NCBI GenBank assembly: GCA_949294395.1
Contig: CASFGU010000023.1
Span: 21-64,020, forward strand
Source: an uncultured bacterium
Lineage (GTDB): Bacteria > Cyanobacteriota > Vampirovibrionia > Gastranaerophilales > Gastranaerophilaceae
Direction: 5' to 3'
Length of the DNA stretch: 64,000 bases
Numbering within the stretch: position 1 is the first letter of the stretch; every line of letters starts with the position of its first letter. A model generated the notes under the pieces. The model saw only the letters and a list, made by a program, of their open reading frames with translations. It ran no database searches and was not told where the DNA came from. Position numbers and translations under genes: made by a program. Below, one piece after another: positions 926-27,466 of the stretch.

Positions 926-1744
926 TTATTTTTTTAACAATTTTTCAAAAAAAGAATATACAGGATTTTGAGTTTTCTTCTTGTCGGTTAAGCCTCTTAA
1001 ATAGTCCTGACCACCGTATCGAGGATGTGCCTTATCTGTTGACAGAATTTTTATATCATCCTTAAACGGATTATTCTTGTACCATTTGCGCGGCATCCAG
1101 CGTCCTTCCGGATAAAGATAATTAACCGGCATAATGAGCGGATTTTTATCAAGTAAATACTTATTCAGCATACTCTCATCGTGCCAGAGAGGAATAACCC
1201 CGTTATCAATATCAATACGGGTTAACTCAGCTAATTTTTCGCACATTTCAAGATATGAAGCCCCCCCCCCCCCGTTCAAAGCTCCGGTTGCGTAATGCTT
1301 TCCGGCGCCATAAGGGATGTATGCCTGTGATGCCGGATTTCTGTCATAGGTAAATTCATCGGGCTGTTTGTTATAAAATGCCGGATGAGAACCGGTCATT
1401 AAAAAATCATTTTCGGCAGAGGGCAGAATTTCTTCTCCTACCTTGCTCAAAAATTTTGTGTTTGCATTAAAGAAAAATAGGTAATCGTATTCTTTTAAGC
1501 GTTCTTTCTGTGAAAGAAATATTTCAAACCGCATCATTGTATCGTAAGGCCAACCGAGTTTTTTCTGATAAATTTTTAAAATATTTTTGTTTTCTTCGTA
1601 CTTCAATTTTTCCGCATCAGTAAAGACAAAGTAAGTTTTATTATCTTCCGGCAGAAAATATTTTTCACACCCCGGATAAAATTCATCCCAGAAACAGATG
1701 TATCTGCCTGTTACAATATATAAAACAGCTATTTTCTTCTTCAT
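926..1744 (-). CDS. glycosyltransferase family 6 (ABO / alpha-1,3-Gal(NAc)-transferase-like), bacterial NXN type
   Basis: Motifs AVLYIVTGRY..FWDEFY, FFFNANTKF (NXN in place of the DXD of animal GT6) and GALNGGGG..(27 aa)..WHDESMLNKYLL. These align by eye with the mammalian GTA/GTB segment GGFFGGS...WHDESHLNKYLL. Confidence 0.8.
   Translation of the reverse strand: MKKKIAVLYIVTGRYICFWDEFYPGCEKYFLPEDNKTYFVFTDAEKLKYEENKNILKIYQKKLGWPYDTMMRFEIFLSQKERLKEYDYLFFFNANTKFLSKVGEEILPSAENDFLMTGSHPAFYNKQPDEFTYDRNPASQAYIPYGAGKHYATGALNGGGGASYLEMCEKLAELTRIDIDNGVIPLWHDESMLNKYLLDKNPLIMPVNYLYPEGRWMPRKWYKNNPFKDDIKILSTDKAHPRYGGQDYLRGLTDKKKTQNPVYSFFEKLLKK
1261..1273 (-). repeat. homopolymer: C13 on + strand, G13 on the coding strand, inside the GT6 gene
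   Basis: Counted directly (gaag-CCCCCCCCCCCCC-gttc). Encodes the GGGG of ALNGGGGASY. Confidence 0.95.
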
Positions 1745-3216
1745 AACTTAATCCTTACTATTAGTTCTTTTTTTATAATCTTTATAATTACATCCTTCCA
1801 GCTTTCATCAATTCCTCGTTTATAAAGTTTAACGCTATCGTACCAGTCGCAATGGTTTAGGTCAAGGTGCCAGCGCCAGTTGTACTGATAAGGAAGCAGG
1901 ATTATGCAGGGTTTACCGAGTGCTCCTGCAACGTGTGCAAGCGAAGTGTCATTGCAGATTATAATATCCATATTCTCTACAGCGGCTGCCGTGTATGAAA
2001 AATTTTTAAATGTTTCGCTTAAGTCTATTATGTTTTTGCCGGAGAGTTTTTTTAATTCTTCCGAACCTTCAAACGTCTGGCATGAATAAATTTGAACATT
2101 ATTAAGTTCAAACAGCGGGTTGAACGCTTCGATATTTATAACCCTTCCTGTTTCATAGAACGTGTTGCCCTGCCATTTTATTCCTATTTTAATTTTCTTG
2201 TTATTAAAAAAGTTTTCTTTATACCATTTGACTTTTTCAACGTTAGCTGACAGATATTTACCGGTTGGTTGAAAAATATTAAGGTTATTTCGCTTTAAAA
2301 GATACGGGAGGCTTAATAGCGGTGCGTGAACATCAAAATCAATATCCTTTTGCGCTTTAAAAGTTTCCATAACCTCTATATCAGGAAAATTTTCGAGGAA
2401 CCATTCCGCAAGTTCCTGCTGGGGCTTAAAAATTATTTTTTTACAGCGAGCTTGGAGTTCTTTGAGGTATCTGGAATACATAATAACATCGCCAAATCCG
2501 GCTTCGTAATAGACATAAATTGTTTTGTCTGAAATATTTTCCCCCTGCCAGAGCGGCGCTTTTGCTGTTAAATCCGGATACGTTGTTTCCTGTGTTTTTA
2601 TGGCGGTTTCACGGCATAGGCGTGCTTCAAATGGTTTGAAGCCGCGCTCGTAGTCTTTGTTTCTAAAGTATGCAAGTGAGAGAAAATAAAGGCTTTCCCT
2701 GTCATCGGGATTTATCCTTAATACTCTGTTATAATATGTGATTGCCCCGCGCGGATTGTTAAGAAGAAGGTAGAGGGCGGCAAGGTTAAAGTTTGCTTTT
2801 TCAGAGGCAGGATTAAGTTCAAGAGCTTTCAGATAGGCTTGTTCTGCAGCATCAAAGTTTTCGAGGTTTTTGTAAGCAAGACCGAGGTTAAACCACAGGG
2901 TAAAGCTGCCGCTGTCAGTAATAAATGCTTCTTTTATAACTGACACGGCATTATCCCACTTTTCTTGTTTTATGTAGAGCCCAGCAAGATTTTCGTAAGT
3001 ATATATGTTTTTTTCAAGCTTTATTGATTTTTTGAATAGTTTTTCCGCCTCGTCATATTTTTCTGTCTGATATTTTAAAAGTCCGAGAAGATTGAATATT
3101 TCACTGTTTTGAGGGTTAATTTTCAGTGCTTCAACATAAAGCTTTTCAGCCTTTGAAAATTCTCTTTTCGCATGATGAGAAAACGCTCTTTCTAATAATT
3201 CTTTTGATTTATCCAT
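1741..3216 (-). CDS. TPR-repeat protein with C-terminal GT9-like (heptosyltransferase-fold) domain
   Basis: The N-terminal ~190 aa are TPR-like repeats (AEKLYVEALKINPQN, AEQAYLKALELNPAS, YYNRVLRINPDD). The C-terminus has GIKWQGN...CNDTSLAHVAGALGKP, typical of GT9-type sugar-nucleotide binding. Its stop overlaps the GT6 start (ATGA). Confidence 0.6.
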   Translation of the reverse strand: MDKSKELLERAFSHHAKREFSKAEKLYVEALKINPQNSEIFNLLGLLKYQTEKYDEAEKLFKKSIKLEKNIYTYENLAGLYIKQEKWDNAVSVIKEAFITDSGSFTLWFNLGLAYKNLENFDAAEQAYLKALELNPASEKANFNLAALYLLLNNPRGAITYYNRVLRINPDDRESLYFLSLAYFRNKDYERGFKPFEARLCRETAIKTQETTYPDLTAKAPLWQGENISDKTIYVYYEAGFGDVIMYSRYLKELQARCKKIIFKPQQELAEWFLENFPDIEVMETFKAQKDIDFDVHAPLLSLPYLLKRNNLNIFQPTGKYLSANVEKVKWYKENFFNNKKIKIGIKWQGNTFYETGRVINIEAFNPLFELNNVQIYSCQTFEGSEELKKLSGKNIIDLSETFKNFSYTAAAVENMDIIICNDTSLAHVAGALGKPCIILLPYQYNWRWHLDLNHCDWYDSVKLYKRGIDESWKDVIIKIIKKELIVRIKL

Positions 3217-7534: not shown

Positions 7535-8128
7535 TTATCTTTTTATAGTATCGTTGGATTTAAGATATTCTTTTGCAATTTCATCTTTTACATACATTTT
7601 GCCGTCTTTTTTAATAAAGATTTCAAAAATATCAGGATCAGAGCATTTGTCAGGATCAGTGCTGTTGTACATGCAGTTAGGTTGCTTTTCTGAACCGTTT
7701 ACGTCGACTCTTATTTTTGCGTCTGCTGCAAAATCTGTAATAGGCATAATCCATTCAATCCCGTCGCTTGAGATAAATGCAATCTGGTTTGCCACGCAGT
7801 TTGGTACATCATCAACCGTGTTTAGTTTGCTTGCGAATAGCTTGCAGAATTTTGTGTCGCCTGAAATAGATGAATCTGCGGCAGCAGGTTCTATTTCGTC
7901 AAATCCTTCTTTGCCGAGTTTTGTCGCGTACATATCTTCATCGTTAATAAGTTCTGTAACGATTCTTTCTGTGAGATAGTATGCTTTTTTAAACAGAATT
8001 TTATTTTTTGCGGGTTTTACCTGCATAATTGCCGGAATTAGCATTGTTGCAATTATTGAAAGAATTGCAAGGCAGACCATCATTTCCGCTAAGGTAAAAC
8101 CGTATTTAAAATTAGTCATTTTTTTCAT
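7535..8128 (-). CDS. prepilin-type N-terminal cleavage/methylation-domain protein (197 aa)
   Basis: Leader MKKMTNFKYG then FTLAEMMVCLAILSIIATMLIPAI: G-1, F+1, E+5 and a hydrophobic helix. Confidence 0.8.
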   Translation of the reverse strand: MKKMTNFKYGFTLAEMMVCLAILSIIATMLIPAIMQVKPAKNKILFKKAYYLTERIVTELINDEDMYATKLGKEGFDEIEPAAADSSISGDTKFCKLFASKLNTVDDVPNCVANQIAFISSDGIEWIMPITDFAADAKIRVDVNGSEKQPNCMYNSTDPDKCSDPDIFEIFIKKDGKMYVKDEIAKEYLKSNDTIKR

Positions 8129-8152
8129 TTTTTATTTGTCCTTTTTTATTTT

Positions 8153-9811
8153 TTACCAGATAATAACAATTGCTCCAGGCTTACCTGCGGTGGCTGCCAT
8201 ATTTGATACATCCGCATCTGAGCATGATATAGGGCCTCTAAATGTTGAACTTAATTCAACCCCATTAAATTTTCTTATATGCTTGCCGGCCCAGCACCTA
8301 TCTTCTGAGGTGCCGCCGTCGCCGCCACGTCCGAAAGTGTTCAGGTCAATCTCACCGGAACCTGTCGGTACATCATCCATATTTGCAATGTTGGCAGCAC
8401 GGCTGTATGATGATTTTGCGCCATAGACGTTCGGTGATTGTCCTGTCTTGACATTTGATTGTGTAGGGGCTGCCGAAAGTTTTTGTGGGGAGCCGTCTGC
8501 AGGTATTTCAGCCGGTAATTCTTCTACAGGCAAAGGAACCTTCCCTTTCCCGCCTAATCCGCCGGGAACAGAAATTTGATCATCATTTATAGATGTTCTT
8601 TCGCCGGGATTTCCGTTATTACCGGAGTTAAGTGCAGGAGGAAGTCCGCCTCTTCCCGGTTCTAATTTCACAGAAGAACTTTTAAACGACCGTACAAATA
8701 TTGCAAGATATTCTCCGGCAGTACCGCCTTCTCCTGCTGTCATATATTTGGTTTCGTATTCATGACTGTAGGTGTAAGTTGGCGTATGAAGACCTGCACT
8801 ACATGTAGCGTATGAGGTACTTGTACCGTCAGTTCCAGGTGTGCCTGGGGTGACTGTTGTACATATATCGCACTCAGTAGATGGCGAAGCCGAAGCCGGC
8901 CCGCCGCCTGTTCCGCCGGTAACAGAGCAAGATGTTGCGATACTGCCATTTATATAGAGAGCAGCAGACGCTCCGTCGCCATCACCTCCTGCAAGCCCGC
9001 TACCATTAGAAGCTGAGCTTCCTGATGCACCGGTGGCAGCAAGCAAGGAGTCTTGTGTTATCCCAAGATCTACAGGTAATACTGCAGTACTGCAGGTTGC
9101 ACTGGCTCCGCCAGAACCTCCTCCGGTGGGATCCCCAGGCATTTCGTTTGTGCTAGCTTCCCAGCTGCAGGTAACTGTTGCGGTGTCGTATGCGCTACAA
9201 TCTGACGATGATATATAATCTGCAACTTTTGTACCGTCGCAGGTACACTCCCCGTAAGAGGTAAGATATATATGATAAGCATCACTACCATCACCGCCAG
9301 CCCCTGAAGTTGCACAGGCATATATAGTATCTCCGCTAACCAGACTTTTCCATTCTGAATAATCAATATAATAAGGATCACCCATTAGATTCTGTGAGCA
9401 ATATGAAGGTCGTGGGTCTGCATTAGTATTACACCATCCTGTAGCGTCCGTAGTCCCCGTATTTATAGTTGAAGCCCTGGTAGTCCCATCGTATCCGGCA
9501 TCCCCGCCTGAGCCGCCGCCGCCTACAAGCTGGATATAAAAGTAGTTAGCTTTTGCCGGAGGTTCAAATTTGCATTCGGTAACTTTTCTTTTAAATAATC
9601 TTGTTTTTTCAACGTAACGTTCTTCATATAAATCCCCGCTGCTATCTCTGTAACAGGCATATTTCCCGTGTACAATTTTTTTTGGAACACGGGTATGTTT
9701 TTTGGTAATTACTGACATAGATCCGGCTGTAATCAAGGATGCAATCATAAGTAGTAACAGCATCTCAATAAGAGAAAATCCGGATTGTGATTTGTTGCGT
9801 ATTTGTATCAT
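8153..9811 (-). CDS. large prepilin-type protein with Gly/Cys-rich domain (552 aa), paralogue P1
   Basis: Leader MIQIRNKSQSG then FSLIEMLLLLMIASLI. Core motifs HGKYACY, CKFEPPAKANYFYIQLVGGGGSGG, GTAGEYLAIFV and PGRGG. The terminal residues are GKPGAIVIIW. 16 Cys. RBS GAGGAG. Confidence 0.75.
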   Translation of the reverse strand: MIQIRNKSQSGFSLIEMLLLLMIASLITAGSMSVITKKHTRVPKKIVHGKYACYRDSSGDLYEERYVEKTRLFKRKVTECKFEPPAKANYFYIQLVGGGGSGGDAGYDGTTRASTINTGTTDATGWCNTNADPRPSYCSQNLMGDPYYIDYSEWKSLVSGDTIYACATSGAGGDGSDAYHIYLTSYGECTCDGTKVADYISSSDCSAYDTATVTCSWEASTNEMPGDPTGGGSGGASATCSTAVLPVDLGITQDSLLAATGASGSSASNGSGLAGGDGDGASAALYINGSIATSCSVTGGTGGGPASASPSTECDICTTVTPGTPGTDGTSTSYATCSAGLHTPTYTYSHEYETKYMTAGEGGTAGEYLAIFVRSFKSSSVKLEPGRGGLPPALNSGNNGNPGERTSINDDQISVPGGLGGKGKVPLPVEELPAEIPADGSPQKLSAAPTQSNVKTGQSPNVYGAKSSYSRAANIANMDDVPTGSGEIDLNTFGRGGDGGTSEDRCWAGKHIRKFNGVELSSTFRGPISCSDADVSNMAATAGKPGAIVIIW

Positions 9812-9842
9812 TTAATGCTCCTCTATGCTTTCTCAAGAATTT

Positions 9843-10772
9843 TTACCATATTATAACAGCTGCACCATCATTTCCCGGCCGCCCCTGAGCTCCTCCGTTT
9901 CCAGGTGCTGCAGTAACTATATCAGTATCAACCCCTATTGCCTGCAGATAGTTTGTAAATTGTGAAACATCCGCTGCTGTAGTCATATTGGTATCCACCG
10001 TCATTGAAACTTCATAATTGCCGTCAGCATCGCTATAATTGACGAGTGTTCCGCTCATAGTTGTTGTGTTATTGATTCCGTAATCTCCGTTAAATAGTAA
10101 CTGTTCTGTAACGTAAGCATCCGGCTCTGTTCCTGCAATATCGTCCATTGCACAGTATGATACCTGTAAATAATCAGTATAAGCTTTGCAATAAGGCTGT
10201 CTGGAACAGGTATATTTTGCACTTGTTACCGTACAATTTAATACGTGGCTCCCATCCATTGTTGATTTATCAAAACCGTATCCGCCGCCCAGAACCGTTG
10301 CTATCGTTTTAGTTCCGCTGCTATCTACGGTATCAACAGTGGATGAAGTTGATGAACCCCCAACCGCAGCGCCTTTCCCGGGGGTTATTTGCAATTCTTT
10401 TCCTATATCTGTAACAAAGAAACTCTGGTATTCTCCGGCATTCCCGCCATAGCCGCTGGATGAAGATGAACCGGCTCCGCCTCCGCCGACAAGATTTATT
10501 ATATAATACTGAGCATTTTTAATAGGTTTAAACCGGCAAATACTTACTGTTTCAGCTGTACGCGGCATATTTTCAATAAAGTACTGCTGCGTCAGTGTTC
10601 CACTATTGTAGTAGCATTCAAACCTGCCGTGCGGCGCTTTTTCAGCCACAGGTTTACGTTTTTTTGTAAAAACGTTAGCACTGGCTGTTACGAATATAGC
10701 AACTATACCCATAACTACCAGTGTTTCAAACAGTGAAAATGCTAATTTATTATTTTTGTCAAATGTTATCAT
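9843..10772 (-). CDS. prepilin-type protein with Gly-rich domain (309 aa), paralogue P2 (minimal version)
   Basis: Leader ...NNKLA then FSLFETLVVMGIVAIFV. PHGRFECYY, CRFKPIKNAQYYIINLVGGGGAGSSSSSGYGGNAGEYQSFFV, ITPGKGAAVGG. Ends GNDGAAVIIW. 6 Cys. Confidence 0.75.
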   Translation of the reverse strand: MITFDKNNKLAFSLFETLVVMGIVAIFVTASANVFTKKRKPVAEKAPHGRFECYYNSGTLTQQYFIENMPRTAETVSICRFKPIKNAQYYIINLVGGGGAGSSSSSGYGGNAGEYQSFFVTDIGKELQITPGKGAAVGGSSTSSTVDTVDSSGTKTIATVLGGGYGFDKSTMDGSHVLNCTVTSAKYTCSRQPYCKAYTDYLQVSYCAMDDIAGTEPDAYVTEQLLFNGDYGINNTTTMSGTLVNYSDADGNYEVSMTVDTNMTTAADVSQFTNYLQAIGVDTDIVTAAPGNGGAQGRPGNDGAAVIIW

Positions 10773-10783
10773 CTAGAGGTTCC

Positions 10784-12406
10784 TTACCACACTATTACAA
10801 CAGCTCCGCTGTGTCCTTTTTGTGCCGGACATACAACTTCCGGATTATTTAATTTTATCTCATTGCCGTCATCATCTTTAAGTGCTGAGCCATCTCTTGT
10901 ACGGCATGTGTAAACTTGATGGTTTTCAGGCGGTGTTGTATAGGTTTCATTAGCAATAGCTACTCCGTTAAGCGAAATAGTTTCAACTGATGCTGTTTCT
11001 CTGACTATAGAATATGCACCATCTCCGCCCATACCGGTCAGTGTTTCTGTAATTTTTGAAGGCATTTTGCTGTCCTGATCGAGTTCAACAAATGTTGAAA
11101 ACCCGGATGTTAAAGCAAATCGGCCGTCTGCATCCACAGCATCAGTATCCACAAGAGTGTTCCCTTTGAGCCAGAAGTTGTAACTCCCGCCAAGAGCGGT
11201 GGCTTTACCTCCCTTTGCTCTTAGTGCTTCTGTTGCTGAGGCATTTTTCAATTTTATAACAGTATCACCGCCGTCAGTTCCTGCAGGAGAAACATAAGAT
11301 GTTCCTTCATCTCCGCCGCGGCCGATACTTATATCAAGTGACTCTGTTAAACCAGGGAAAAACATTGAGATATATTCTCCGTTATTCCCCATAAATCCAT
11401 ACCTTGTAGAGGCTTTTGTTCCCTGTCTTTTGTATGTTATATCCGGCAGACCTGCTGTTCCGTCAACCTGATAAACTCCGGCTCCGCTATTTGAATGTAT
11501 GTAGCTGACATAGCTGGAAAATGCCGGATTGCTGCAATCTGTGGCCGGATCTGTTGAAAGTGTTCCGCCCGATGTTCCCGGAACCAGGACTATTCCTGCA
11601 AGATGACCATTTGTGCCGTTTTCTCCCCCGGCTAAAACACAGCTAACGTCAGGAGTTGTCACTGTCATGTTCCCTCCGCCTGTGTATAGATCTGTAGGGT
11701 TAATGGTGAAAGGACTTCCGAGAGTTATATCTGTTGTTATCTGCGCGCATGTCCCCGGGCCGCCGCTGCCGCCAGGTGCACTATTTACGTGTCCGTCCCC
11801 ATAAGTTATTGAGTAGGGTTCTCCGTTGCTACCTGCAGCCGCGCAAACATCAAGAGTTATTGACGGTTTATGAGAATTCCAGTATGTTCCAAGCCAGGAT
11901 GTAGGACAGGTACCGCCGCTGCCTCCTGCTGCATCACCCGGATCCGCAATAGTACAATTACTCAGGTCATAAGCGCCGCCGCTTCCCCAGGTAAGGGTAA
12001 CACTATCGTATAAGCCTGTATCAGGTGCGTTTATGACGCCGGATTCAAATATAGGAGTTGTTGAGGTTGGATCATCTGTAACATAAGTGCCCCCGGCTCC
12101 TCCTCCGATTGCCTGTACAATAAAGAACGAAGCTTTTGCCGGCGGATTAAATTCACACTGTGTAACTTCTATCGGTGTAGTTTCTCCATATATTTCATCT
12201 GCTGTGTATTGCATAAGCTTATCACCGTCATAGTAGCACTCAAATCTCCCGTGTGGCGCTCTGTCTGTCTTTTTAGGCATTTTGTTGTATGCTATAGGTG
12301 CCATTGACACTATTAAAAATGATAAAATTACAAGAACAAGCAGCATTTCTGCAAGTGAAAAACCTTTATGTGAGTGCGTATTACTTCTGTTAAGCATATT
12401 TATCAT
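10784..12406 (-). CDS. large prepilin-type protein with Gly/Cys-rich domain, paralogue P3
   Basis: The ORF track extends to 12442. The ATG at 12406 has GGAGA 7 nt upstream. Leader ...THSHKG then FSLAEMLLVLVILSFLIV. PHGRFECYY, CEFNPPAKASFFIVQAIGGGAGG, GNNGEYISMFF, IGRGGDEG. Ends GHSGAVVIVW. 10 Cys. Confidence 0.75.
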   Translation of the reverse strand: MINMLNRSNTHSHKGFSLAEMLLVLVILSFLIVSMAPIAYNKMPKKTDRAPHGRFECYYDGDKLMQYTADEIYGETTPIEVTQCEFNPPAKASFFIVQAIGGGAGGTYVTDDPTSTTPIFESGVINAPDTGLYDSVTLTWGSGGAYDLSNCTIADPGDAAGGSGGTCPTSWLGTYWNSHKPSITLDVCAAAGSNGEPYSITYGDGHVNSAPGGSGGPGTCAQITTDITLGSPFTINPTDLYTGGGNMTVTTPDVSCVLAGGENGTNGHLAGIVLVPGTSGGTLSTDPATDCSNPAFSSYVSYIHSNSGAGVYQVDGTAGLPDITYKRQGTKASTRYGFMGNNGEYISMFFPGLTESLDISIGRGGDEGTSYVSPAGTDGGDTVIKLKNASATEALRAKGGKATALGGSYNFWLKGNTLVDTDAVDADGRFALTSGFSTFVELDQDSKMPSKITETLTGMGGDGAYSIVRETASVETISLNGVAIANETYTTPPENHQVYTCRTRDGSALKDDDGNEIKLNNPEVVCPAQKGHSGAVVIVW

Positions 12407-12545
12407 ACTCAAATCTCCATTTCTCTGCCCAAAAATAATCAATCCCGTATATTTTAATTATACCATATATTTTACAAAATGTAACTATTTTCAGATAGAT
12501 TTTACATAAATCTTAACTCTATATCATATTACAGATTTCTCTGCC

Positions 12546-12575
12546 TTGACACATCCACTATTTTTATGATATAAT
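12546..12575 (+). promoter_or_regulatory. sigma70-like promoter for the divergent pilin gene
   Basis: TTGACA, 18 nt, TATAAT (12546-12551 and 12570-12575), 13 nt before the first ATG. Confidence 0.5.
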
Positions 12576-12588
12576 ATTTACATATACA

Positions 12589-13446
12589 ATGGGGTTGTTG
12601 GATATGTTTATGAAAAAAGAAAAAGCATTTACTTTAGCGGAATTGATGATGGTTTTTGTTGTCATTGGGGTTATTGCTTCCATTGCGGTAGTTACCATAA
12701 AGCCTTTTGAAAAGTCCGTTAAATATTTATATTACAGAATGTATAATGTTATTAATACTGCTATTTATAATGCTATGTTTACCAGAGCAGAATTCCCGGT
12801 CGATTCAAATGATTTTTGTACTGCCTTGTTGGAATTTATTAATTCTAATGAAAATCATTGCGACATTGCAAGAAATGTCAGCCTTTCAGATACTGAATAT
12901 CCGGAGGACAAAGTCCAAATTTTTGCCTCAAACGGTGTTAGATTGTATATTGCTGCTAATGCTGACGGTTCGCCATTTACTCATACTGAGGTGGAAACCA
13001 GCGGTATTAGTGTTACATACAAATATTTCGTAGTTATCGCTGACTTAAATGCTGAAAAAGGTCCTAATACTTCCTTGTGGAAAGAAAATAAAATGGCTGA
13101 TATTGTTGCTTTTGTCGTTACTGATTCTACCGAAGTTGTTCCTGTAGGCTATCCGGAAGTCGATACCCGTTATATGTATGCTAGGGTTGTTTACCCTCCT
13201 GTAGATGATGATCCGGAAAGCAATCTTTCGGAAGCTGTTTCTTATTATGAAGCTAAGAATAGAGCATGGGGTACAACAGTAGATTCTTCTGAAGCTATGT
13301 CTTTTAATTTTCAGGATGATTTCCCTGCTGATTCCCCATTCAAATTACCTCCGGAAGCTTATCCTACAGCACCTTCTTTAGATTTTTCTCAAGGGTGTCT
13401 GGCTAGTAACTCTCCTTGCTATGTAAAAATTGAAGAATACGAATAA
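12589..13446 (+). CDS. prepilin-type N-terminal methylation-domain protein (about 280 aa)
   Basis: MKKEKA then FTLAELMMVFVVIGVIASIAVV. The real start may be the ATG at 12604 or 12610. Acidic/proline-rich C-terminal half. Confidence 0.75.
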   Translation: MGLLDMFMKKEKAFTLAELMMVFVVIGVIASIAVVTIKPFEKSVKYLYYRMYNVINTAIYNAMFTRAEFPVDSNDFCTALLEFINSNENHCDIARNVSLSDTEYPEDKVQIFASNGVRLYIAANADGSPFTHTEVETSGISVTYKYFVVIADLNAEKGPNTSLWKENKMADIVAFVVTDSTEVVPVGYPEVDTRYMYARVVYPPVDDDPESNLSEAVSYYEAKNRAWGTTVDSSEAMSFNFQDDFPADSPFKLPPEAYPTAPSLDFSQGCLASNSPCYVKIEEYE

Positions 13447-17823: not shown

Positions 17824-18690
17824 TCAGCGTTTGCAATGGCAGTCATCCGGCTTGCCGAATAAAAGCCTCATCATACCCATACGGCTTTTGAGGGTTCTTG
17901 AAACCGTGCAGGTTATGTCATCTACGTTGCTGGTAATTGAATTTACGTTGTCCATTGTCTGCGTAAGATTTCGGGTTGCGCAGTCAATGTTTTTTGTAAT
18001 TTCTTTTATATTGCGGGTAGTCTGATTGAGATTTTCAATACTTTCATCTGTCATATCCTGCTTAATGGAACGGTTAAGCTTCAATGTTGTTAAGCGCAGA
18101 TTTCTTGTTGTCATCTCAAGGTTGCCGGTTGTTCTATTTATGTTACGTTGATTTTCTTTAACTGTGGAATTGAGCGTGTTGAGTAAATCTCCTGCATTTT
18201 TTGTTGTGTTATTTAGTGTTTCTATAAATGTTGAAACATTATCCACGATTAAATCAAGTGTGCCGTTTTCGCTCTGTTCATTCAGAAAGGCTTCTACGCT
18301 TGCAGAAGTTTTGCCCTTGATACGATCCCCGTTTTTTAGCATCGTTTCTGAGGGAAGCTGCGGGTAAACTATATCAATATAGTCAAACTTTTTTCTGTAA
18401 TTTTTTACGCGTGCCGTAACGTTTTTGGGAAGCTGCAAGTCTGCTGGGAAAAATAATATATGGACTTCTGTCTTTGTGTAATCGTCGACAGGCTTGACTT
18501 TAGTTACTTTCCCTATATTAAAACCTTTATAAAATACGCTCATCTTTGGCGGAAGCGGTTCTGCTTCGTCAAACTCAGCAACAATGCGTGTGTATGAAAG
18601 ATACCGGTAAAAGTAATATCCTCCCGGGATTATGACAGCTAAAAATAATAATATTAAAAGTGTTGTTATGATAAAGTTTCTGATTCCCAT
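17824..18690 (-). CDS. MlaD/MCE-domain protein with long helical C-terminal region
   Basis: N-terminal TM, MCE-like beta segment (VFYKGFNIGKVTKVKPVDD...), then about 150 aa of N/T-rich heptad-like helix. Confidence 0.55.
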   Translation of the reverse strand: MGIRNFIITTLLILLFLAVIIPGGYYFYRYLSYTRIVAEFDEAEPLPPKMSVFYKGFNIGKVTKVKPVDDYTKTEVHILFFPADLQLPKNVTARVKNYRKKFDYIDIVYPQLPSETMLKNGDRIKGKTSASVEAFLNEQSENGTLDLIVDNVSTFIETLNNTTKNAGDLLNTLNSTVKENQRNINRTTGNLEMTTRNLRLTTLKLNRSIKQDMTDESIENLNQTTRNIKEITKNIDCATRNLTQTMDNVNSITSNVDDITCTVSRTLKSRMGMMRLLFGKPDDCHCKR

Positions 18691-18746
18691 ACTGGGAATT
18701 TATTATTTTATATCATATAAAACAATTATCTTATGAGGCTATTCTG

Positions 18747-19619
18747 TTAGTCAATAAAGCTAATCTCATAGGCGCCGTTATCAATGTAGAACTTCAACTT
18801 TATCACTTCCCCGTTGTATCCTTCCGGAGGTGTCCTGTAGACAGGAAGCCGCATAAGCATATAATATATCTGGTCATTCAGACTTTTGTTATTTGACTGA
18901 TAGATAAATCCTCTGTTTAAGAGTTTTCCGTTTTGTGCAAGGCTGAATTTAATTGCGCATTCACCTTTGCCGCTGATTTTTACTAGATCAAGTTTGGAGA
19001 GCAGCGCAAGTCTAATGCTGTTTTTGTAATTTTCAAATTCTGTTTTATCCATAACAGGTTTTTGGGGTTTTTGCTGTGTTTGCGCTGTATTTTTGGGAAC
19101 AGGTGCTGCTTTTTGTTTTTTGTCAGGTGCGGAGGTTTTTGTTGAAGGTTTGTGTGGGGATGTTTTCTGCGCTGAAGTTGCTGCCGGTTTGACCGGTTTT
19201 TCCTGCGCGGAACTTTTTGCGGCTGATTTTTTCTCCTGAACTTTTTTCTGAATTGGTTGCTGTGAAGTTGTTGTTTCCGGCTGAACATCCTTGAGAATTT
19301 CTGGTGCCGGAATATTTCCGGCTGGTTCGGATTTTTTTACTGTATTGTTCCAGATTTTATCAATATTCGGAATGGCAGGAGCCGGCTTTTCTGATTTTTG
19401 CGGTTCGACCGTTTTTTGAGGTTTTTTGTCAGGAATTGTCCAAGGGATTATTGCAAGTATAAGGCAGAATATGAATATTACGATTGATACAATTTGTCCT
19501 GCCGGTATAGCTTTAAAACTTGGGGCGGCTTGTGGAACTTCTTCAAACGTATTATTTCCGCAATCGCAGTAATCCGGTTTTATTTTGTATTCTGCATTAC
19601 AATCTTTACATCTGAACAT
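18747..19619 (-). CDS. zinc-ribbon / TM / Pro-Lys-rich linker / TonB-C-like protein
   Basis: MFRCKDCNAEYKIKPDYCDCGN (CxxC...CxC), one TM, a P/K/Q-rich spacer, and a C-terminal ~90 aa with TonB-C-like pattern (GECAIKFSLAQNGKLLNRGFIYQSNNKSLND). Confidence 0.5.
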   Translation of the reverse strand: MFRCKDCNAEYKIKPDYCDCGNNTFEEVPQAAPSFKAIPAGQIVSIVIFIFCLILAIIPWTIPDKKPQKTVEPQKSEKPAPAIPNIDKIWNNTVKKSEPAGNIPAPEILKDVQPETTTSQQPIQKKVQEKKSAAKSSAQEKPVKPAATSAQKTSPHKPSTKTSAPDKKQKAAPVPKNTAQTQQKPQKPVMDKTEFENYKNSIRLALLSKLDLVKISGKGECAIKFSLAQNGKLLNRGFIYQSNNKSLNDQIYYMLMRLPVYRTPPEGYNGEVIKLKFYIDNGAYEISFID

Positions 19620-19621
19620 TT

Positions 19622-20488
19622 TTACCTCAAGTATTTTATCCTCTCAACATCGGAGTAGTCTGACGGCTTACTGTACTTATCAAATGTAGCAAGAACAAAG
19701 CCTCCTGTCACGTTTGTTACAATACGTTTTGTTCCCTGCGGAAAGTTCAGAATAGGCTGTCCCTGATAACTCAGAAGAAGCGGTTTTATCTGTCTTACGG
19801 CAAGCGACGTATATTCAGGATTGTCAGACCAGACTTTCAGGTTGGAAATCTGTCCGTAGCGGTCAACCGTAAACGAAAATCTAAACCTTGTGCCGAGCGG
19901 TGCATCGATTTTGACATCCCTCATAACTTTGTTTTGCAGATTACTCCGCCAGCGGTTCCATACAATAATTTCTTCCTGTTCCGTAAGCTGTTTAACCTGC
20001 GGCTGCTGCGGAGTCGGCTGAACTACTTCTTTTTGCTGCGGTTGAATTTTTGTTTCAGTTTCAGCCTCAGGGGTTTCTGTTTTAACTGTTTTCGTTTCGG
20101 TTTTTTGCTCCGGATGTAGAATTTCTTTGATTGATGCCGGAAGTTCCCGCGGTTTAGTTGTTTTTACTTCTTTAGCAGACGACTCTTGTGCCTGTTTTTT
20201 AATCTCTTTTACATTTTTTTGAGATTTATTTCCTTCCGTGCTTATAAACTTTTGAGTTTCTTTGATAACTTCCTGCGGTGTAATTTTTATTTTTTCTTCT
20301 GTTTGTTTAAGGGGTTGAATTTCTTTTACGCGGATTTCTTTTTCTTGAATTTCAGGTTCTGTTGTTTGCATTTCGACTTCAGCAGGTGAAAAGAGCACCT
20401 GCTTGTAAAGTGCCGGTTTTATTACCTCAACGGTTATTGTGGCGATTATGAATGCTAAAATTGTTATTGCTAATAAGAATTTGTTCAT
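19622..20488 (-). CDS. TM / Glu-Lys-Gln-rich linker / TonB-C-like protein
   Basis: N-terminal TM, a charged spacer, and C-terminal GTRFRFSFTVDRYGQISNLKVWSDNPEYTSLAVRQI resembling TonB-C. Confidence 0.45.
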   Translation of the reverse strand: MNKFLLAITILAFIIATITVEVIKPALYKQVLFSPAEVEMQTTEPEIQEKEIRVKEIQPLKQTEEKIKITPQEVIKETQKFISTEGNKSQKNVKEIKKQAQESSAKEVKTTKPRELPASIKEILHPEQKTETKTVKTETPEAETETKIQPQQKEVVQPTPQQPQVKQLTEQEEIIVWNRWRSNLQNKVMRDVKIDAPLGTRFRFSFTVDRYGQISNLKVWSDNPEYTSLAVRQIKPLLLSYQGQPILNFPQGTKRIVTNVTGGFVLATFDKYSKPSDYSDVERIKYLR

Positions 20489-22047
20489 TATTTATCCAGT
20501 TTTGAAATAAGAGAATCTGCTGCATATATTGAGTAGTTTGTTCCTGCAAGAAGATATGTTTCCGCAATCAAAAGTGCTGTCGGTACCAGTGCTGCAATAA
20601 GGCTTAAAAATATTCCGTTAAAATCCCCGCCTATTTCTGTCATAAAGTAGGAAGTGTTCATTGAAAATTCAATAAATATAATTGCAATTCCTATTATGAA
20701 AGAACGGTTTTCTTCCCGTTTAATCTTTCTTGTGTTTTCAAGTCCGTAAATATCTGTACCGTGTGAGAGATAATCCCTGTATCCGTCAAGTTTTATAACA
20801 TTTGAGCCGGAAATTTTCTTTGCGGATAAAAATGCGTTCACAAACGAGAAAAAGGCAAAAATAATAAGCATTGTGGCTAAAATGAGAAATACCGGTGAAA
20901 ATCTCAATCCTGATATTCTCACCCAGCCGGCAGCTTCCGGAAAACACATTGCAAGGGTATTTGACACCCCGTACGCAAGAAACGGTGCTGTCAAAATTCC
21001 TATTATAACTTCTCCGGCTCCTTTTAGCCGTAGCATAAAGGTTTTTTCTCTTATGTAGTGTAATTTTGTATCGCTCAGGCTGTTTACAAATCGTTCTATC
21101 CAGATTTGATAACCGTTTAAAACAATTTCAAAATCTTCGCGGAACTCGTATTTGTCGAGTTCTTTTGAAAGTTTGTGTCCGCTGAATTTGAAATATCCTG
21201 AAGAAACCGCAAGCGCTGCCTCTATCATTGTGAAAAATGCCGAAATCAACAGAGCAAATACAATTCTGCCGTTCGGGTTCATATAATAAATGAGGTTTAT
21301 TGCATAAAACGCTACAAAAAATATTGCGGATATAAACATCATAAAATTATAGGCTAATTTTGATGTCCCGCCGTTTTCTGCTGCCTGCAGCATCATAAAA
21401 ATTCCCTGCTTGAGAGTGAGCGCAATCCCAAACACTATTACAGAAAAAATCCCCAGAATCTTTATGTTTGTCGGCATATTTAAAAAAGTTCCACTCTCCG
21501 TTACCGGAAGCCCCATAAGGTAATTGGTAATCCCGAATGCAGTCACAACAGATGACATAAATAATGCAATATTTATAAATACTGCTGCTCTGAAGTTTGA
21601 AGAAAGCCTTTTGCTGAGGTCGTTTATTGAAAAGGCTATCTGTTTTACAATTGCAACCCTGTGTTTGTCTATTTCGGTTTTCTGGCTTTCAAGTTTGGTT
21701 TTTACCGGGGATGCAGACTGCGGGGCTGATTTAAGATTCTGTACAGGATTTTCGCTGTCAGCAGAGAGTTTTATGCTGATGAATTCGTTGCTGTCTTTTA
21801 TAAGGAGTTTACAAAGTTTTTCAAAGGAGAGTTTTCCCTCAAGAGGTTTTCCTTTAAATAAAATCTGCTCTGTATTAAAATTATTCAGTACTGAAAACCT
21901 TCCGGTTTCATTGTCAATTTCAACCGTCAGCATATAGTCAAAACCAAGGTCAAGATAAAAATCGAACTGTTCGTTCCCTCCGATTGTTATAAAATCTTTC
22001 CCGCTGAAAGTTTGTTCTTTTTGGCTTGTAGATATTGTAATTCGCAT
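20488..22047 (-). CDS. polytopic membrane protein with N-terminal FHA-like domain
   Basis: The first ~95 aa have an FHA-like beta pattern (ITIGGNEQFDFYLD...FSVLNN...ILFKGKPL) but lack the canonical R/S/H/N residues. About 8 TM helices follow. Its stop overlaps the downstream start. Confidence 0.35.
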   Translation of the reverse strand: MRITISTSQKEQTFSGKDFITIGGNEQFDFYLDLGFDYMLTVEIDNETGRFSVLNNFNTEQILFKGKPLEGKLSFEKLCKLLIKDSNEFISIKLSADSENPVQNLKSAPQSASPVKTKLESQKTEIDKHRVAIVKQIAFSINDLSKRLSSNFRAAVFINIALFMSSVVTAFGITNYLMGLPVTESGTFLNMPTNIKILGIFSVIVFGIALTLKQGIFMMLQAAENGGTSKLAYNFMMFISAIFFVAFYAINLIYYMNPNGRIVFALLISAFFTMIEAALAVSSGYFKFSGHKLSKELDKYEFREDFEIVLNGYQIWIERFVNSLSDTKLHYIREKTFMLRLKGAGEVIIGILTAPFLAYGVSNTLAMCFPEAAGWVRISGLRFSPVFLILATMLIIFAFFSFVNAFLSAKKISGSNVIKLDGYRDYLSHGTDIYGLENTRKIKREENRSFIIGIAIIFIEFSMNTSYFMTEIGGDFNGIFLSLIAALVPTALLIAETYLLAGTNYSIYAADSLISKLDK

Positions 22048-22059
22048 AAATAAAATCCC

Positions 22060-22857
22060 CTAATAAGGCTGAACGGTCATAGGTTCTGAAAGCATAATCT
22101 GAAGGTTTGTTCCCTCCGGTACAACAATTTCTTCGCCTTTTGAAGCTACTGCTGATACCGCGCCTACGGTTCCGCCGATTGCAGCCCCTCTAATCAGTGC
22201 GTCTCTTGGATCTGCCCCGAAAATCATAGAGATTGCAGCAATTGCAACCCCGCTTAATACACCGCCGAGAACTCGTTTTGTTATTTTTCCGGCTCTTGAA
22301 GAGTCTGCTACTATATAAACTTTGTTTGTCGAAAGCGGAATTATCCGTCCGTCAGGTGTCATAAGCCGGTTAAAGTTAATACCTATTTTGCCGTTCCCCA
22401 TAGCAAAAGTTGCCCTGTTGGAATCTACAACGCTTCCGCTCAAAATACTTCCCTCAGGTGCAATTACGGTTCCGTTTACTGTCCAGTCAGATACCAACTG
22501 AGCGCTTACATTGTCACTGTTTGCAATGCTTTCAGAACTTATGGACGAATTAAGCATTGCGTTAAACTGAGTTCCGGCTTCTACATACACAACCCCGCCG
22601 CTTAACTGAGGCTGCTCAAGCGTGATTTCAGGCAGTTTAAATTCCTGGGGCGGAACCGGCTTTATTTCTTCCGGAGGCACAATAAGGTTTTTTCTGTCAA
22701 ATTCTTCCTGTGCCTCATCGCTGAAATCATAGATTACTTCTTCTTCCGGCGCCGGTTTGTCCGTCCTTTCATAAATGTGAAGGCTGTCCGCAGCAAAAGC
22801 ACAATTCCAGAAGAAAGATACACATATAAAAACACTTAAAATCTTTTTCAGGTTCAT
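22060..22857 (-). CDS. secreted protein with TrbI/VirB10-like beta-barrel domain and C-terminal glycine zipper
   Basis: Signal peptide. AGTQFNAMLNSSISS...VSAQLVSD...IAPEGSILSGSV...IGINFNRLMTPDGRIIPL matches the TrbI/VirB10 C-terminal pattern by eye. The tail is GGVLSGVAIAA...GAAIGGTVGAVSAVA. Confidence 0.45.
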   Translation of the reverse strand: MNLKKILSVFICVSFFWNCAFAADSLHIYERTDKPAPEEEVIYDFSDEAQEEFDRKNLIVPPEEIKPVPPQEFKLPEITLEQPQLSGGVVYVEAGTQFNAMLNSSISSESIANSDNVSAQLVSDWTVNGTVIAPEGSILSGSVVDSNRATFAMGNGKIGINFNRLMTPDGRIIPLSTNKVYIVADSSRAGKITKRVLGGVLSGVAIAAISMIFGADPRDALIRGAAIGGTVGAVSAVASKGEEIVVPEGTNLQIMLSEPMTVQPY

Positions 22858-22939
22858 TACAATATATTATACTTACACCAACTGTATTTGTAAATGCAGA
22901 TTTGCAATTGTAAAGTAAAAATTATATAATTAGTTTAAG

Positions 22940-23689
22940 ATGAGAAAATTTTACGTTTTTTTTAGTATATCGCTGCTTTTGTCCGGTCTGCTGTGTGCGC
23001 AGGCAGCGTCAAGGTATAATGTTTATACTCCGACTGTTTATAAGCAGGGAAATCTTGTTCAGGCTCCTCTGAAAGTTGAGGGGGATGTGATTGAACTTCT
23101 TGTCGACTATTCAGGGAGTATGGAAACGTGGATTAATCTTGCAAAATCTATGCTCGTTAGTATTCTGCCGAAAATTACCGAAAAAACAAATGTCGGTTTA
23201 AGAGTTTTCGGACAGGGAAGCCGTAATGCGTTTAAATTCTTTAACGGCTGCAAGGCGACCGCTCTTGTAAGCCGTGCAAAACCTATGAATACTGACGGAA
23301 TTATAAGCGGTCTTGAAAGCACGCTTATCGGCGGTTCAACCCCTCTTACTTATGCACTCAGGCAGGTTGTATATAATGATTTTGTGTCGCTCAATGCAAA
23401 TACCGGCAAGAAAATTATCCTTGTTACAGATGGCGGCGAAACCTGCGGTGGCGACCCTTGTGAATTTGTAAGAAATCTTGTCAGATACAGAAAAGATATA
23501 ATTATTGATGTTGTAATGGTTAACGGTTCAAATAAGCTTCGCTGTCTTGCGGATGAAACAGGCGGTAAATATTACAATACACTTAATTCAGTCGACTTTA
23601 ATGACGCTCTGAATAAAACCTTTGGTGCAGAACCTCAGCAGTCATCACCGCAGCAAAACGGTAATGTTCATTATCAGTTTATAAATTAA
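22940..23689 (+). CDS. secreted von Willebrand factor A (VWA) domain protein
   Basis: Signal peptide. MIDAS motif DYSGSM, then GGSTPL, then ILVTDGGE. Confidence 0.8.
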   Translation: MRKFYVFFSISLLLSGLLCAQAASRYNVYTPTVYKQGNLVQAPLKVEGDVIELLVDYSGSMETWINLAKSMLVSILPKITEKTNVGLRVFGQGSRNAFKFFNGCKATALVSRAKPMNTDGIISGLESTLIGGSTPLTYALRQVVYNDFVSLNANTGKKIILVTDGGETCGGDPCEFVRNLVRYRKDIIIDVVMVNGSNKLRCLADETGGKYYNTLNSVDFNDALNKTFGAEPQQSSPQQNGNVHYQFIN

Positions 23690-23730
23690 AAGCTTATCCG
23701 CTGTGTTAGTTTGATTGAATTTTAGACAAT

Positions 23731-23768
23731 AAAAAAAGGAAGTAAATTTATATTTACTTCCTTTTTTC
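23731..23768. terminator. bidirectional rho-independent terminator
   Basis: AAGGAAGTAAAT-ttat-ATTTACTTCCTT flanked by an A-run and a T-run, between convergent genes. Confidence 0.7.
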
Positions 23769-23787
23769 TATTTTTGAGGCATTGTGA

Positions 23788-26700: not shown

Positions 26701-27294
26701 ATCATTATTTTTAATACCTGTAATCATACCGGCATTGTCACCGATTACAACATTTCTGCCTGAAAGCGAGATGCCTTCTCTTGTAATAACTTTACCGTTG
26801 ATAGTTACATCTGCATTGTTCTGGTCTAATCTATAGTAACCGAGATCCGGTGAATTTTTGTATTTTTCGTAATCAGACTGTGTCGGTGTTAATACAGAAA
26901 GTGAGCCGACATTAATTACACCGGAAGCCCCGACAACCATACCTTTCGGTGAAATGAAGATTGCCTGCCCGTTGTAGAATTTGCCGTCTCTCATTGAATT
27001 AACTAGACCGTTGATGTTTACCTGATTATCAACTAAGTTAACAAATTTTGATACGTTTTCTGTACCGTATTTAAAAATCAAGTTGGCTATGTCGCCTTCT
27101 GATAAGTTGAAGTTGTCATACTGTCTAAAGCCCACACCGTTGTGCTGGTCTGTAGGATTAATGTTGTAAATCCCGTTGTTTCCTGTGACTCCGGTAATAT
27201 CGGTAGCGTTTGCCTGAAGTGACTGTGTAGCCAGGAAGCAGGCTGCTAATAATGATACTGCCAATCTGCCTTTGTTAAGTTTTCTCTGTTTCAT
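23788..27294 (-). CDS. TpsA-like exoprotein (filamentous-haemagglutinin N-terminal domain plus beta-helical repeats), no adjacent TpsB
   Basis: The start at 27294 has AGGAAAG upstream; the track start is 27339. Signal peptide. TPS-domain motifs NGIYNINP...FRQYDNFNLSEGDIANL...FVNLVDNQVNINGLVN...AIFISPKGMVVGASGVINVGSLSVLTP. About 12 copies of a ~66-aa super-repeat follow. Confidence 0.85.
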   Translation of the reverse strand: MKQRKLNKGRLAVSLLAACFLATQSLQANATDITGVTGNNGIYNINPTDQHNGVGFRQYDNFNLSEGDIANLIFKYGTENVSKFVNLVDNQVNINGLVNSMRDGKFYNGQAIFISPKGMVVGASGVINVGSLSVLTPTQSDYEKYKNSPDLGYYRLDQNNADVTINGKVITREGISLSGRNVVIGDNAGMITGIKNNDVINTNNQANVLFNNLVNTSVSNANTLAAKDGKIVITSYADKGGTEINGTIKNFAENAKTNIGNKGADGLKIAGTVETNGDTLLVNHNGDLEISGNVTSSGKISASNYGEALNVTSSAKITNDGALSMVNSGDGNLNVDGTINSGDNVVITNNGNNANIGGKIASKNGSINITNRKGALNLSGTLTNDSTLKVWNTGVAGTNLTGTIANNGSAVIQNDKGEFNISGTINNSDKADLDVISNGTGLTLAEGSKVKNDGSLRMWNKGANGIDVNGTVENNSKAVIQNYNGEMNINGKVANVDTLNLINNGSAMNIAEDSELTNTGYLGIQNTGADGLAFNGELVNAEGNTVITNTKGDFIISGNVNNQSGRVSITNKGEQLKIASDAELNNADSLKVWNTGSEGTEVLGTLVNNGNAVIQNDKGNMYVDAEIYTGENELRLTNKGNAMQFGKTNKLVNGGENFEKGGNVTIYNTGAGGMQFDGTTENDGELLISNQNGSLKINQSADIKNNNKTTITAKNGLTNDGSITNNGQLNIANTGNGEIALNGTITNSDTDRNASMIVNNQKGAVKVNGLIANNGKATITAGNGLTVGKEGVIGNTNSLSMQNKGTNGLTVNGQIDNNGTAIITNKAGAMNINGTINTEKANEKVDVKTSITNQGTKLNISESAKLNNSETLNVWNSGSEGTDLAGTVNNSGDVLVRNDKGALNVTGDIENTNNLRLQNSGTKLNLADTNRIKNDGSLTLLNNGTEGTAIDGEIESTGTTTITNNKGNLNINGKYTGKENKLTVSSKGGINVGKNAEIDNEGSMTMLNTGEDGLTIDGSVTNNGNAILTNMTGDMNINGTVTNNNGKLNVTSRGDELNISGTIDGNGILKVWSTGEGGTDISGAIQNETGNAVIQNDNGAMNISGTIVNNANKLYITNHGTELNITETGKVQNKGNVAIWNTADKNMNIKGTVTSTDGRVIKTNDNKK

Positions 27295-27466
27295 AATGTT
27301 ATCTTTCCTCATAAATTGCCCCATATACATATTAAACATCTAAACATTTAAAAAATTGCTATAATATCATAAAATATTACAAAATATTAAGTAAACTTTT
27401 GTTTAATATTCTGCAAAAAAGAATACAACCATTAGTTATGGCTGTATTCATGAGAAATTTTATTTG

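Follow-up and report, generated by a model that had tools for sequence, protein, structure and literature searches.

Three paralogous pilin-fused glycine-rich proteins conserved in Gastranaerophilales: a probable pilus-borne adhesin set

The stretch of DNA analysed here, 64,000 nucleotides (nt) long and referred to below as the window, comes from an uncultured bacterium of the family Gastranaerophilaceae (order Gastranaerophilales; assembly GCA_949294395.1, contig CASFGU010000023.1, positions 21 to 64,020 of the forward strand). At positions 7535-13446 it carries a cluster of five pilin-like genes, of which P3, P2, P1 and P4 are on the minus strand and P5 is divergent on the plus strand. The main subject of this work is the triad formed by P3 (10784..12406, minus strand; 540 amino acids (aa), orthogroup A, 10 Cys), P2 (9843..10772, minus strand; 309 aa, orthogroup B, the shortest of the three, 6 Cys) and P1 (8153..9811, minus strand; 552 aa, orthogroup C, with 16 Cys; the longest type and the one richest in cysteine). 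A first-pass annotation made from the bare sequence had proposed three paralogous, pilin-fused genes at this place, and the open reading frames (ORFs) bear it out; its hand count of the cysteines agrees with our recount. The other two genes are P4 (7535..8128, minus strand), which encodes a small conventional pilin-like protein of 197 aa that is not glycine-rich (N_methyl 31.2 bits), and P5 (12589..13446, plus strand), which encodes a pilin-like protein of 285 aa with a weak GspH-like N-terminus (N_methyl 25.1 bits). Matches of both to PDB entries are confined to the helix. The intergenic gaps are 11 nt (P3-P2), 31 nt (P2-P1) and 24 nt (P1-P4). Promoter-like sites, each a consensus match only, are found 5′ of P3 (12457..12485, minus strand; GTTACA-17-TATAAT with TG) and 5′ of P5 (12546..12575, plus strand; TTGACA-18-TATAAT, 12/12), and a terminator-like hairpin with a 14-bp stem and a T run lies just 3′ of P4 (7466..7498, minus strand). 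Because of the short gaps, the hairpin and the promoter-like site, P3-P2-P1-P4 looks like one operon, with P4 as its last gene. The start of P3 is preceded by GGAG 8-9 nt before the ATG at 12406, and the database orthologues are likewise called at 540 aa.

The N-termini of P1, P2 and P3 are of class III (prepilin) type, with G or A at position -1, F at +1, E at +5 and about 20 hydrophobic residues. The cleavage contexts are G11/FSLIE in P1 and A11/FSLFE in P2 (F12 and E16 in both), and G15/FSLAE in P3 (F16, E20, with a proline at mature position 22). With the N_methyl model P3 scores 22.9 bits, above the 21.2 cut-off, while P1 (18.4) and P2 (18.3) remain below it; P3 also scores 19.8 with TIGR02532. 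The GspH and GspG models match the N-terminal helices weakly, far under their cut-offs, and past the helix the triad proteins do not resemble GspH, I, J or K in sequence. Right after the membrane helix comes a basic stretch (KKHTRVPKK at residues 37-45 of P1, KKRKPVAEK at 37-46 of P2, NKMPKKTDR at 41-49 of P3), which is also found in the orthologues.

Downstream of this stretch the three proteins share a modular core. In P3 the module HGRFECYY is followed by a strand with GGGAGG, an insertion of about 230 aa (residues 108-335; 11402..12085, minus strand), the GEY/IGRGG glycine blocks and a C-terminal GAVVIVW. P1 contains VHGKYACYR, GGGGSGG, an insertion of about 250 aa between the GGGG strand and the GEY block (residues 107-355; 8747..9493, minus strand), and then the glycine blocks that match PF21722 (residues 358-502). 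P2 has the HGRFECYY hairpin module and a Gly_rich_2-type domain at residues ~79-309 (residues 79-309 taken as 9846..10538, minus strand), which runs from the C-x-F-x-P...YYIINLVGGGG strand to the terminal VIIW strand. According to the first-pass annotation, all three proteins contain five modules in the same order: (i) the HGRFxCYY-type module, (ii) the strand ending in the glycine run, (iii) the GEY block, (iv) the PGxG block and (v) the terminal tryptophan motif. A regular-expression check found i, iii, iv and v in all three and ii in P2 and P3, but module ii of P1, ANYFYIQLVGGGGSG, departs from the pattern at one residue, having Y where the pattern has I. The insertions of about 250 aa described between modules ii and iii are of that size in P1 but closer to 230 aa in P3, and P2 has about 10 residues at this place. 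The annotation called P2 the minimal version, and it is the shortest; it is not minimal in every respect, for it has its own inserted domain of about 120 aa with four cysteines (residues 168-288), placed before the last glycine block. The annotation had set beforehand, as a point that would count against it, the loss of the motif likeness in a proper alignment. The likeness survives, with BLASTP E values far beyond chance over the first 95-130 residues (2e-19 for P1/P3, 5e-17 for P2/P3 and 9e-13 for P1/P2), second high-scoring segment pairs over the GEY...PGxG block (E 3e-5 and 1e-3), and an E value of 3.5e-13 when the P2 and P1 family profiles are compared by hhalign.

At the family level, membership of the ectodomains in Gly_rich_2 (PF21722; gathering cut-off 24.3 bits) is well supported. 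P1 scores 24.0 bits (E 4.4e-5), just below the cut-off, and relatives, with orthologues of all three proteins among them, exceed it (P0003 27.7, P0021 26.5, P0061 27.0 and P0107 33.6). At E<=0.01 the profile matches 4/16 members of the P2 orthologue group, 4/11 of the P3 group and 6/11 of the P1 group; in orthologue P0021 nearly the full profile is aligned (positions 3-225 of 226), beginning at the C-x-F-x-P strand and ending with the final W. Profile searches of the PDB with the P2, P1 and P3 family alignments returned just the pilin helix and spurious single-chain variable fragment (scFv) linkers. PF12810, the family of the ALK-type domain, gave no match at E<=1 for P1, P2 or P3 and is not among the families reported for 38 orthologues.

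The structural model of P2 agrees with this assignment. Built by AlphaFold2 on a 16-sequence alignment, it has a mean predicted local distance difference test (pLDDT) of 84 and a predicted template modelling score (pTM) of 0.65, and comprises a helix at residues 14-36, a low-confidence basic linker, a beta-hairpin module at 49-81 and then beta strands, the terminal one at 304-308 with a pLDDT of 94. The glycine blocks are confident stretches, neither helix nor strand, that alternate with the beta strands. When the model was compared with BFVD by Foldseek, 46 matches at E<=1e-3 were obtained (best 2.1e-6, probability 1.0), mostly proteins of phages and giant viruses named 'glycine-rich domain-containing protein' together with mycobacteriophage minor tail proteins. 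The template modelling scores (TM-scores) of these matches are just 0.20-0.34, so only the core is shared with the viral proteins. Against the PDB there was nothing at E<=1e-3; the best matches, non-significant, include the Bxb1 tail tip 9d93 (three chains, E 0.03-0.17) and, at rank 11, ALK 9g5i_B (E 0.33). The earlier proposal that the region after the helix belongs to the glycine-rich family of phage and viral fibre proteins is thus supported, both by the PF21722 matches in the orthologues and by a confident AlphaFold model whose Foldseek matches are viral glycine-rich-domain proteins. PDB sequence and fold searches match no pilin beyond the helix. The other half of the proposal, a link to the ALK/LTK receptors, gains the weak Foldseek match (probability 0.47) but lacks any PF12810 match at E<=1. 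The glycine blocks are likely to be of polyglycine-II (PGII) or polyproline-II (PPII) type, by analogy with the related phage proteins. Bxb1 gp33 (brush) and gp29 (spike; entry 9D93), S16 gp38 and ALK have all been described as PPII-helix bundles (2026 paper, PMC13243192).

With a helix-free profile of the P2 ectodomain, 244 representatives were found at E<=1e-3 among 1.84 billion cluster representatives. Nearly all of these matches start at residue 41-62 of the target protein, which implies that a leader and a helix are present in those proteins, and a strict prepilin motif occurs in 151/167 of the proteins fetched, the remainder being fragments or minor motif variants. This search answers the question, raised in the first-pass annotation, of how widely the fusion occurs: the relatives are nearly all pilin-fused, and as judged from their sequences this clade of the glycine-rich family is always so. 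A predicted H-G-R/K-F/Y-x-C hairpin, outside Pfam coverage, marks the clade. The database copies are all unnamed or 'hypothetical'. A distant pilin-fused Gly_rich_2 branch (P0191, P0189, P0176 and P0177) has an HGSWxC module, many more glycine blocks and the end ...PGAVI(I/V)EW; P0191 (L042, 10001-11761) is a single gene between dnaE and lysS, outside any triad. A 'Clostridium sp.' MAG label on the 90% cluster of one of its neighbours is not regarded as a reliable name for its host.

Relatives of the whole triad were collected by a scan of one genome per species, which gave 41 loci, with 33 complete triads scored. Nearly all the loci are labelled Candidatus Gastranaerophilales, Melainabacteria or Candidatus Scatousia, and they include 'Brachyspira sp. 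CAG:484', which we take to be a misnamed melainabacterium. Triad contigs L002, L004, L015, L029 and L037 are labelled Brachyspira, Acutalibacteraceae, Muribaculaceae or Bacteroidaceae and are probably misnamed or mis-binned Gastranaerophilales. The P2 of locus L001 is 96% identical to that of the window. Wherever a locus offers enough sequence, its three genes stand in one fixed order and encode first a P3-type protein (mature length 334-911 aa, C-terminal AVVI[VL]W), then a short P2-type protein (282-392 aa) and finally a long, Cys-rich P1-type protein (526-1387 aa); in L005 the first gene is present with its start miscalled. For each class the nearest neighbour in another locus belongs to the same class in 33/33 cases, the mean identity is 0.42-0.45 within a class vs 0.26-0.29 between classes, and paralogues from one genome resemble each other no more than those from different genomes do. 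The class-wise nearest neighbours and the lack of any within-genome excess indicate that the triplication predates these lineages, and the three classes represent three ancient, non-redundant orthogroups, all retained. In most loci whose flanks are available the triad has further pilin genes beside it, of which a small one lies downstream and a larger, divergent one upstream, with additional ones in some loci: a small gene placed like P4 is present in close relatives and in one other set of loci, and a divergent gene placed like P5 in many related loci. Two metagenome-assembled genomes (MAGs) have the cluster on two contigs each (L007/L008 in BRZ_QC__bin21, L005/L013 in BRZ_PS__bin4), with complete triads in L005, L008 and L013 while L007 ends inside the third gene; some genomes therefore appear to hold the whole cluster twice.

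The ectodomains themselves combine conserved and variable parts. Mean column identity in P1-type proteins is 0.54 in the insertion vs 0.72-0.93 in the flanking glycine modules, and in P3-type proteins 0.53 vs 0.71-0.86; length variation is located in the insertions. The conserved glycine blocks are read as a scaffold onto which variable, putatively disulfide-rich insertions are grafted. Once the helix is removed, the number of cysteines in the ectodomain is even in 31/33, 29/33 and 31/33 proteins of the three classes (91/99 overall, counted over proteins that are related and so not independent), with counts that span 6-40 and reach 40 in P1-type relatives. Such parity plainly means that gains and losses of cysteine come in pairs, as is characteristic of extracytoplasmic domains held by disulfide bonds. 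One of the relatives, P0107 (866 aa), has a match to Lcl_C (Legionella collagen-like protein C-terminal) beside N_methyl and Gly_rich_2, which shows that the scaffold can accept additional modules. This layout of conserved glycine modules and variable insertions is as in the gp38-type phage adhesins, whose glycine-rich motifs build a PGII sandwich with variable, receptor-binding loops projecting from it (PMC12892980).

A pilin N-terminus with a grafted functional domain is an established kind of protein. The survey of Raynaud et al. (2021) recorded 264 modular-pilin architectures, and since the same polypeptide carries N_methyl and Gly_rich_2, the proteins described here are modular pilins by its definition (PMC8179133). 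Dataset S1 of that survey contains IPR012902-PF12810 (2 proteins) and IPR012902-PF12810x3 (1 protein), listed without discussion or study, and Dataset S2 contains PilY1 with PF12810, likewise undiscussed (PMC8179133). The first-pass annotation knew of no description of such a fusion. A pilin joined to PF12810 was, however, already in Dataset S1, although none of these glycine-rich entries is discussed or studied. The triad is unlike these glycine-rich pilins in having PF21722 rather than PF12810 and in being an ordered set of three paralogues. Like PilB and PilC of Streptococcus sanguinis and other modular pilins, its members join a prepilin motif to a non-pilin functional module, expected at the tip for adhesion (PMC8179133). 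Unlike the modular pilins of the survey, they have no pilin globular module between the helix and the grafted domain, and their architecture has so far been unstudied. In the literature we found no mention of PF21722 and no paper that pairs type IV pilins with polyglycine, nor any description of the PF21722 version, the missing pilin globular module, the HGRFxCYY module or the three-paralogue operon of Gastranaerophilales.

Among proteins outside the pilins, the PF21722 proteins of phages and giant viruses are similar to the triad in the above-cut-off matches of its orthologues, the full-length profile match and the 46 Foldseek matches, while they differ in lacking the HGRFxCYY module as well as a prepilin leader and helix, and in the low TM-scores given above. 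The gp38-type adhesins of Salmonella phage S16 and E. coli phage PP01, which form the PGII sandwich, also have conserved glycine motifs that flank variable segments (PMC12892980). Their variable parts are short loops, in contrast to the whole Cys-rich inserts of 120-550 aa in the triad, and they are carried on a tail fibre instead of the supposed pilus; gp38 is not among the listed sequence or Foldseek matches of the P2 family and model. The ALK/LTK domain (PF12810; 7NX1, 7N00, 9G5I) is a glycine-rich, extracellular, ligand-binding domain with PPII-type helices on a beta scaffold (PMC13243192), but with no PF12810 match and a non-significant Foldseek E value, the link of the triad to ALK is weak. 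As for filament caps, the GspI-J-K and PilV-W-X sets and the CofB/TcpB homotrimer are comparable in that three pilin-type helices cap a filament and that minor-pilin operons encode small pilins and large subunits with extra domains (PMC8179133). Co-encoding and strict co-conservation of the three classes plus accessory pilins are seen here. The subunits of those caps have genuine pilin folds, whereas the members of the triad are three paralogues of glycine-rich fold that all keep the glutamate at +5 (E5) and whose heterotrimer is proposed by us.

By analogy with these systems, the trio is probably a pilus-borne adhesin set. In the explanation that we favour, to which we give a probability of roughly one half, each protein begins with a prepilin leader and alpha1-N helix, continues through a short basic linker and the H-G-R/K-F/Y-x-C hairpin, and ends in a Gly_rich_2 domain that takes the place of the usual pilin alpha/beta globular domain. 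Prepilin peptidase would cleave the leaders of P1, P2 and P3; three alpha1-N helices, one from each protein, would then cap a type IV filament, with P4 and/or P5 as adaptors and the filament machinery encoded elsewhere in the genome; and the glycine-rich, disulfide-stabilised ectodomains would form a ligand-binding (adhesin) head, as in phage tail tips and fibres. From the known systems we infer the processing, the incorporation into a filament, the 1:1:1 stoichiometry, the location at the tip and the adhesin role. P1, P2 and P3 possibly form a heterotrimer, because the three classes are strictly co-conserved. It is known that modular pilins act as tip adhesins and that the CofB homotrimer and the GspI-J-K heterotrimer are situated at filament tips (PMC8179133). 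With regard to the machinery, the genome of Ca. Gastranaerophilus termiticola contains pilA, pilB, pilC, pilT and pilD, and other Gastranaerophilales have partial pilus gene sets (PMC5877343). The most specific form of the proposal, according to which the filament cap in Gastranaerophilales is a receptor-binding head made of a heterotrimer of paralogous PGII-type domains directly on alpha1-N helices, replacing or crowning the canonical minor-pilin complex, is tentative and well short of an even chance.

Several observations weigh against the favoured explanation. The window's own P2 and P3 give no PF21722 match, and the model of P1 is poor (pLDDT 49.8), which makes its fold search meaningless. 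The P2 model has only about 23 helical residues (helix 14-36) and no pilin alpha/beta globular domain, the usual long alpha1 of about 50 residues on an antiparallel beta-sheet being absent; the pilins of the PDB are unmatched past the N-terminal helix by sequence or fold. Without that domain, packing in the filament body is unlikely, and placement at the tip is an assumption. Pilus-assembly genes were found neither in the window nor, across all 41 loci, at a distance of up to 10 kb from the triad, and a search for the PilB/GspE Walker-A motif in the window and in loci L001-L041 found none, so that the link to a particular machine is indirect. A strongly basic stretch after the helix, on the presumed periplasmic side, is unusual. 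In addition, E5 is kept in all five pilin-like proteins, while tip-most subunits such as GspK often do not have it.

The absence of a pilin globular domain and of adjacent pilus machinery would also suit a different location, in which the proteins form part of a pseudopilus, short and confined to the periplasm like the endopilus of type II secretion, or are envelope proteins anchored by a prepilin signal (bindosome-like), never on an external filament. The alpha1-N segment alone is pilin-like, and the N-terminal helices show the weak GspH and GspG similarity mentioned above. The window also encodes TolC-like and Omp85 proteins, which indicates that the host is diderm and is compatible with this location. 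In cyanobacteria, moreover, type IV pili and type II-like secretion have components in common. We consider this location unlikely, though hardly negligible. The phage and ALK relatives of the domain serve to bind ligands or surfaces, the conserved scaffold with its variable Cys-rich insertions resembles an exposed binding surface under diversification, PF12810 is also present on PilY1, a pilus-tip adhesin, and ectodomains of up to about 1390 aa are hard to fit into a piston-like pseudopilus. The three proteins might, on the other hand, be exposed on a pilus and still act separately, as three independent modular-pilin adhesins with different ligands, each alone at the tip or sporadic along the pilus and with no 1:1:1 complex. 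The insertions are wholly different between classes, lengths of about 280 up to about 1390 aa occur, PilB and PilC each act on their own (PMC8179133), and distant relatives such as P0191 are single genes outside the triad. However, interchangeable adhesins usually vary by gain, loss and copy number, whereas one gene of each class is found, in fixed order and with none lost, in every locus with enough sequence; the classes diverged before the lineages separated, and the tight operon suggests stoichiometric co-production. Independent action is, like the periplasmic location, unlikely though hardly negligible.

Two further explanations have little in their favour. The fold and Pfam relatives are mainly viral, which raises the question of whether the cluster is phage-derived, i.e., a prophage remnant of tail-fibre or receptor-binding genes whose raised G+C (0.45 vs about 0.38 in the flanks) reflects horizontal acquisition. 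A Phage_holin_4_2-family gene 1.5 kb away and a weak PHROG tail-fibre-assembly match for P1 (E 9e-4, the sole PHROGs match and nothing useful) point the same way. Nonetheless, the G+C at third codon positions (GC3) of the three triad genes is 0.33, equal to the genomic background, with the excess in codon positions 1 and 2; the raised G+C thus stems from amino-acid composition, and horizontal transfer is rejected as its source. The genes around the cluster encode a CitMHS transporter, EamA, an HlyD-like protein and glutamate dehydrogenase; they are ordinary chromosomal genes, both housekeeping genes and transporters, and chromosomal synteny is kept across about 40 species. Pilin leaders are present on all family members, and no relative was found in 2.9 million viral contigs. 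The phage-remnant explanation is largely refuted and, in our estimate, very improbable. Even less can be said for the suggestion in the first-pass annotation that the ...VIIW end is an outer-membrane beta-signal, so that the proteins would be inserted in the outer membrane or dependent on the beta-barrel assembly machinery (BAM). The C-terminal stretch is indeed alternating hydrophobic and ends in an aromatic residue, with a final W in 146/167 family members. But the Gly_rich_2 match reaches the last residues in P0021 and strand 304-308 is modelled with confidence in P2, from which VIIW is the last strand of a soluble domain; besides, the signal at the N-terminus is that of a prepilin and not of a Sec substrate or lipoprotein, and no beta-barrel is predicted. 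At the level of sequence and model the beta-signal is refuted, and its chance of being right is minimal.

Other features of the window may be of interest in their own right. A 5295-aa ORF on the minus strand (35119-51006) has no cysteine and a sole Pfam match, PilZ, near its C-terminus; divergent from it lies a gene for a ShlB/FhaC-type (TpsB) Omp85 transporter (51192-53057, plus strand), and the two may constitute an unusual two-partner-secretion pair. The gene at 29983-31008 (plus strand) encodes a 341-aa protein with a match to Serum amyloid A (PF00277), a mammalian-type domain, at residues 233-323 (E 4.7e-9). At 926-1744 (minus strand) there is a family 6 glycosyltransferase (PF03414, E 7.8e-31), of the family of the blood-group A/B transferases, adjoined by a gene (1741-3216) for a protein with tetratricopeptide repeats (TPR) and similarity to glycosyltransferase family 9 (GT9). 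A run of ORFs on the minus strand (17824-27339) comprises an MlaD-like one and, after it, five that lack any Pfam match (four of 265-519 aa, one of 1183 aa), and a gene with a von Willebrand factor A (VWA) domain is located at 22940-23689 (plus strand).

Gastranaerophilales are common, uncultured bacteria of the gut of humans and animals, and to our knowledge nothing is known of their surface biology. The locus offers a concrete, conserved candidate for attachment to host mucus, food particles or other microbes. If the explanation favoured here is true, the modular-pilin principle would extend to a domain used by phage tail tips and ALK/LTK receptors. P2, with its 309 aa and its confident model, provides a compact bacterial system for the study of glycine-rich PPII-type scaffolds and of the display of inserts on them. 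If, in addition, the triad is a heterotrimeric cap, it would represent a new solution to filament priming and tip formation. The outcome would be a pilus tip built on the principle of phage tail-fibre adhesins, in which disulfide-rich inserts set the specificity for host or microbial ligands in the gut.

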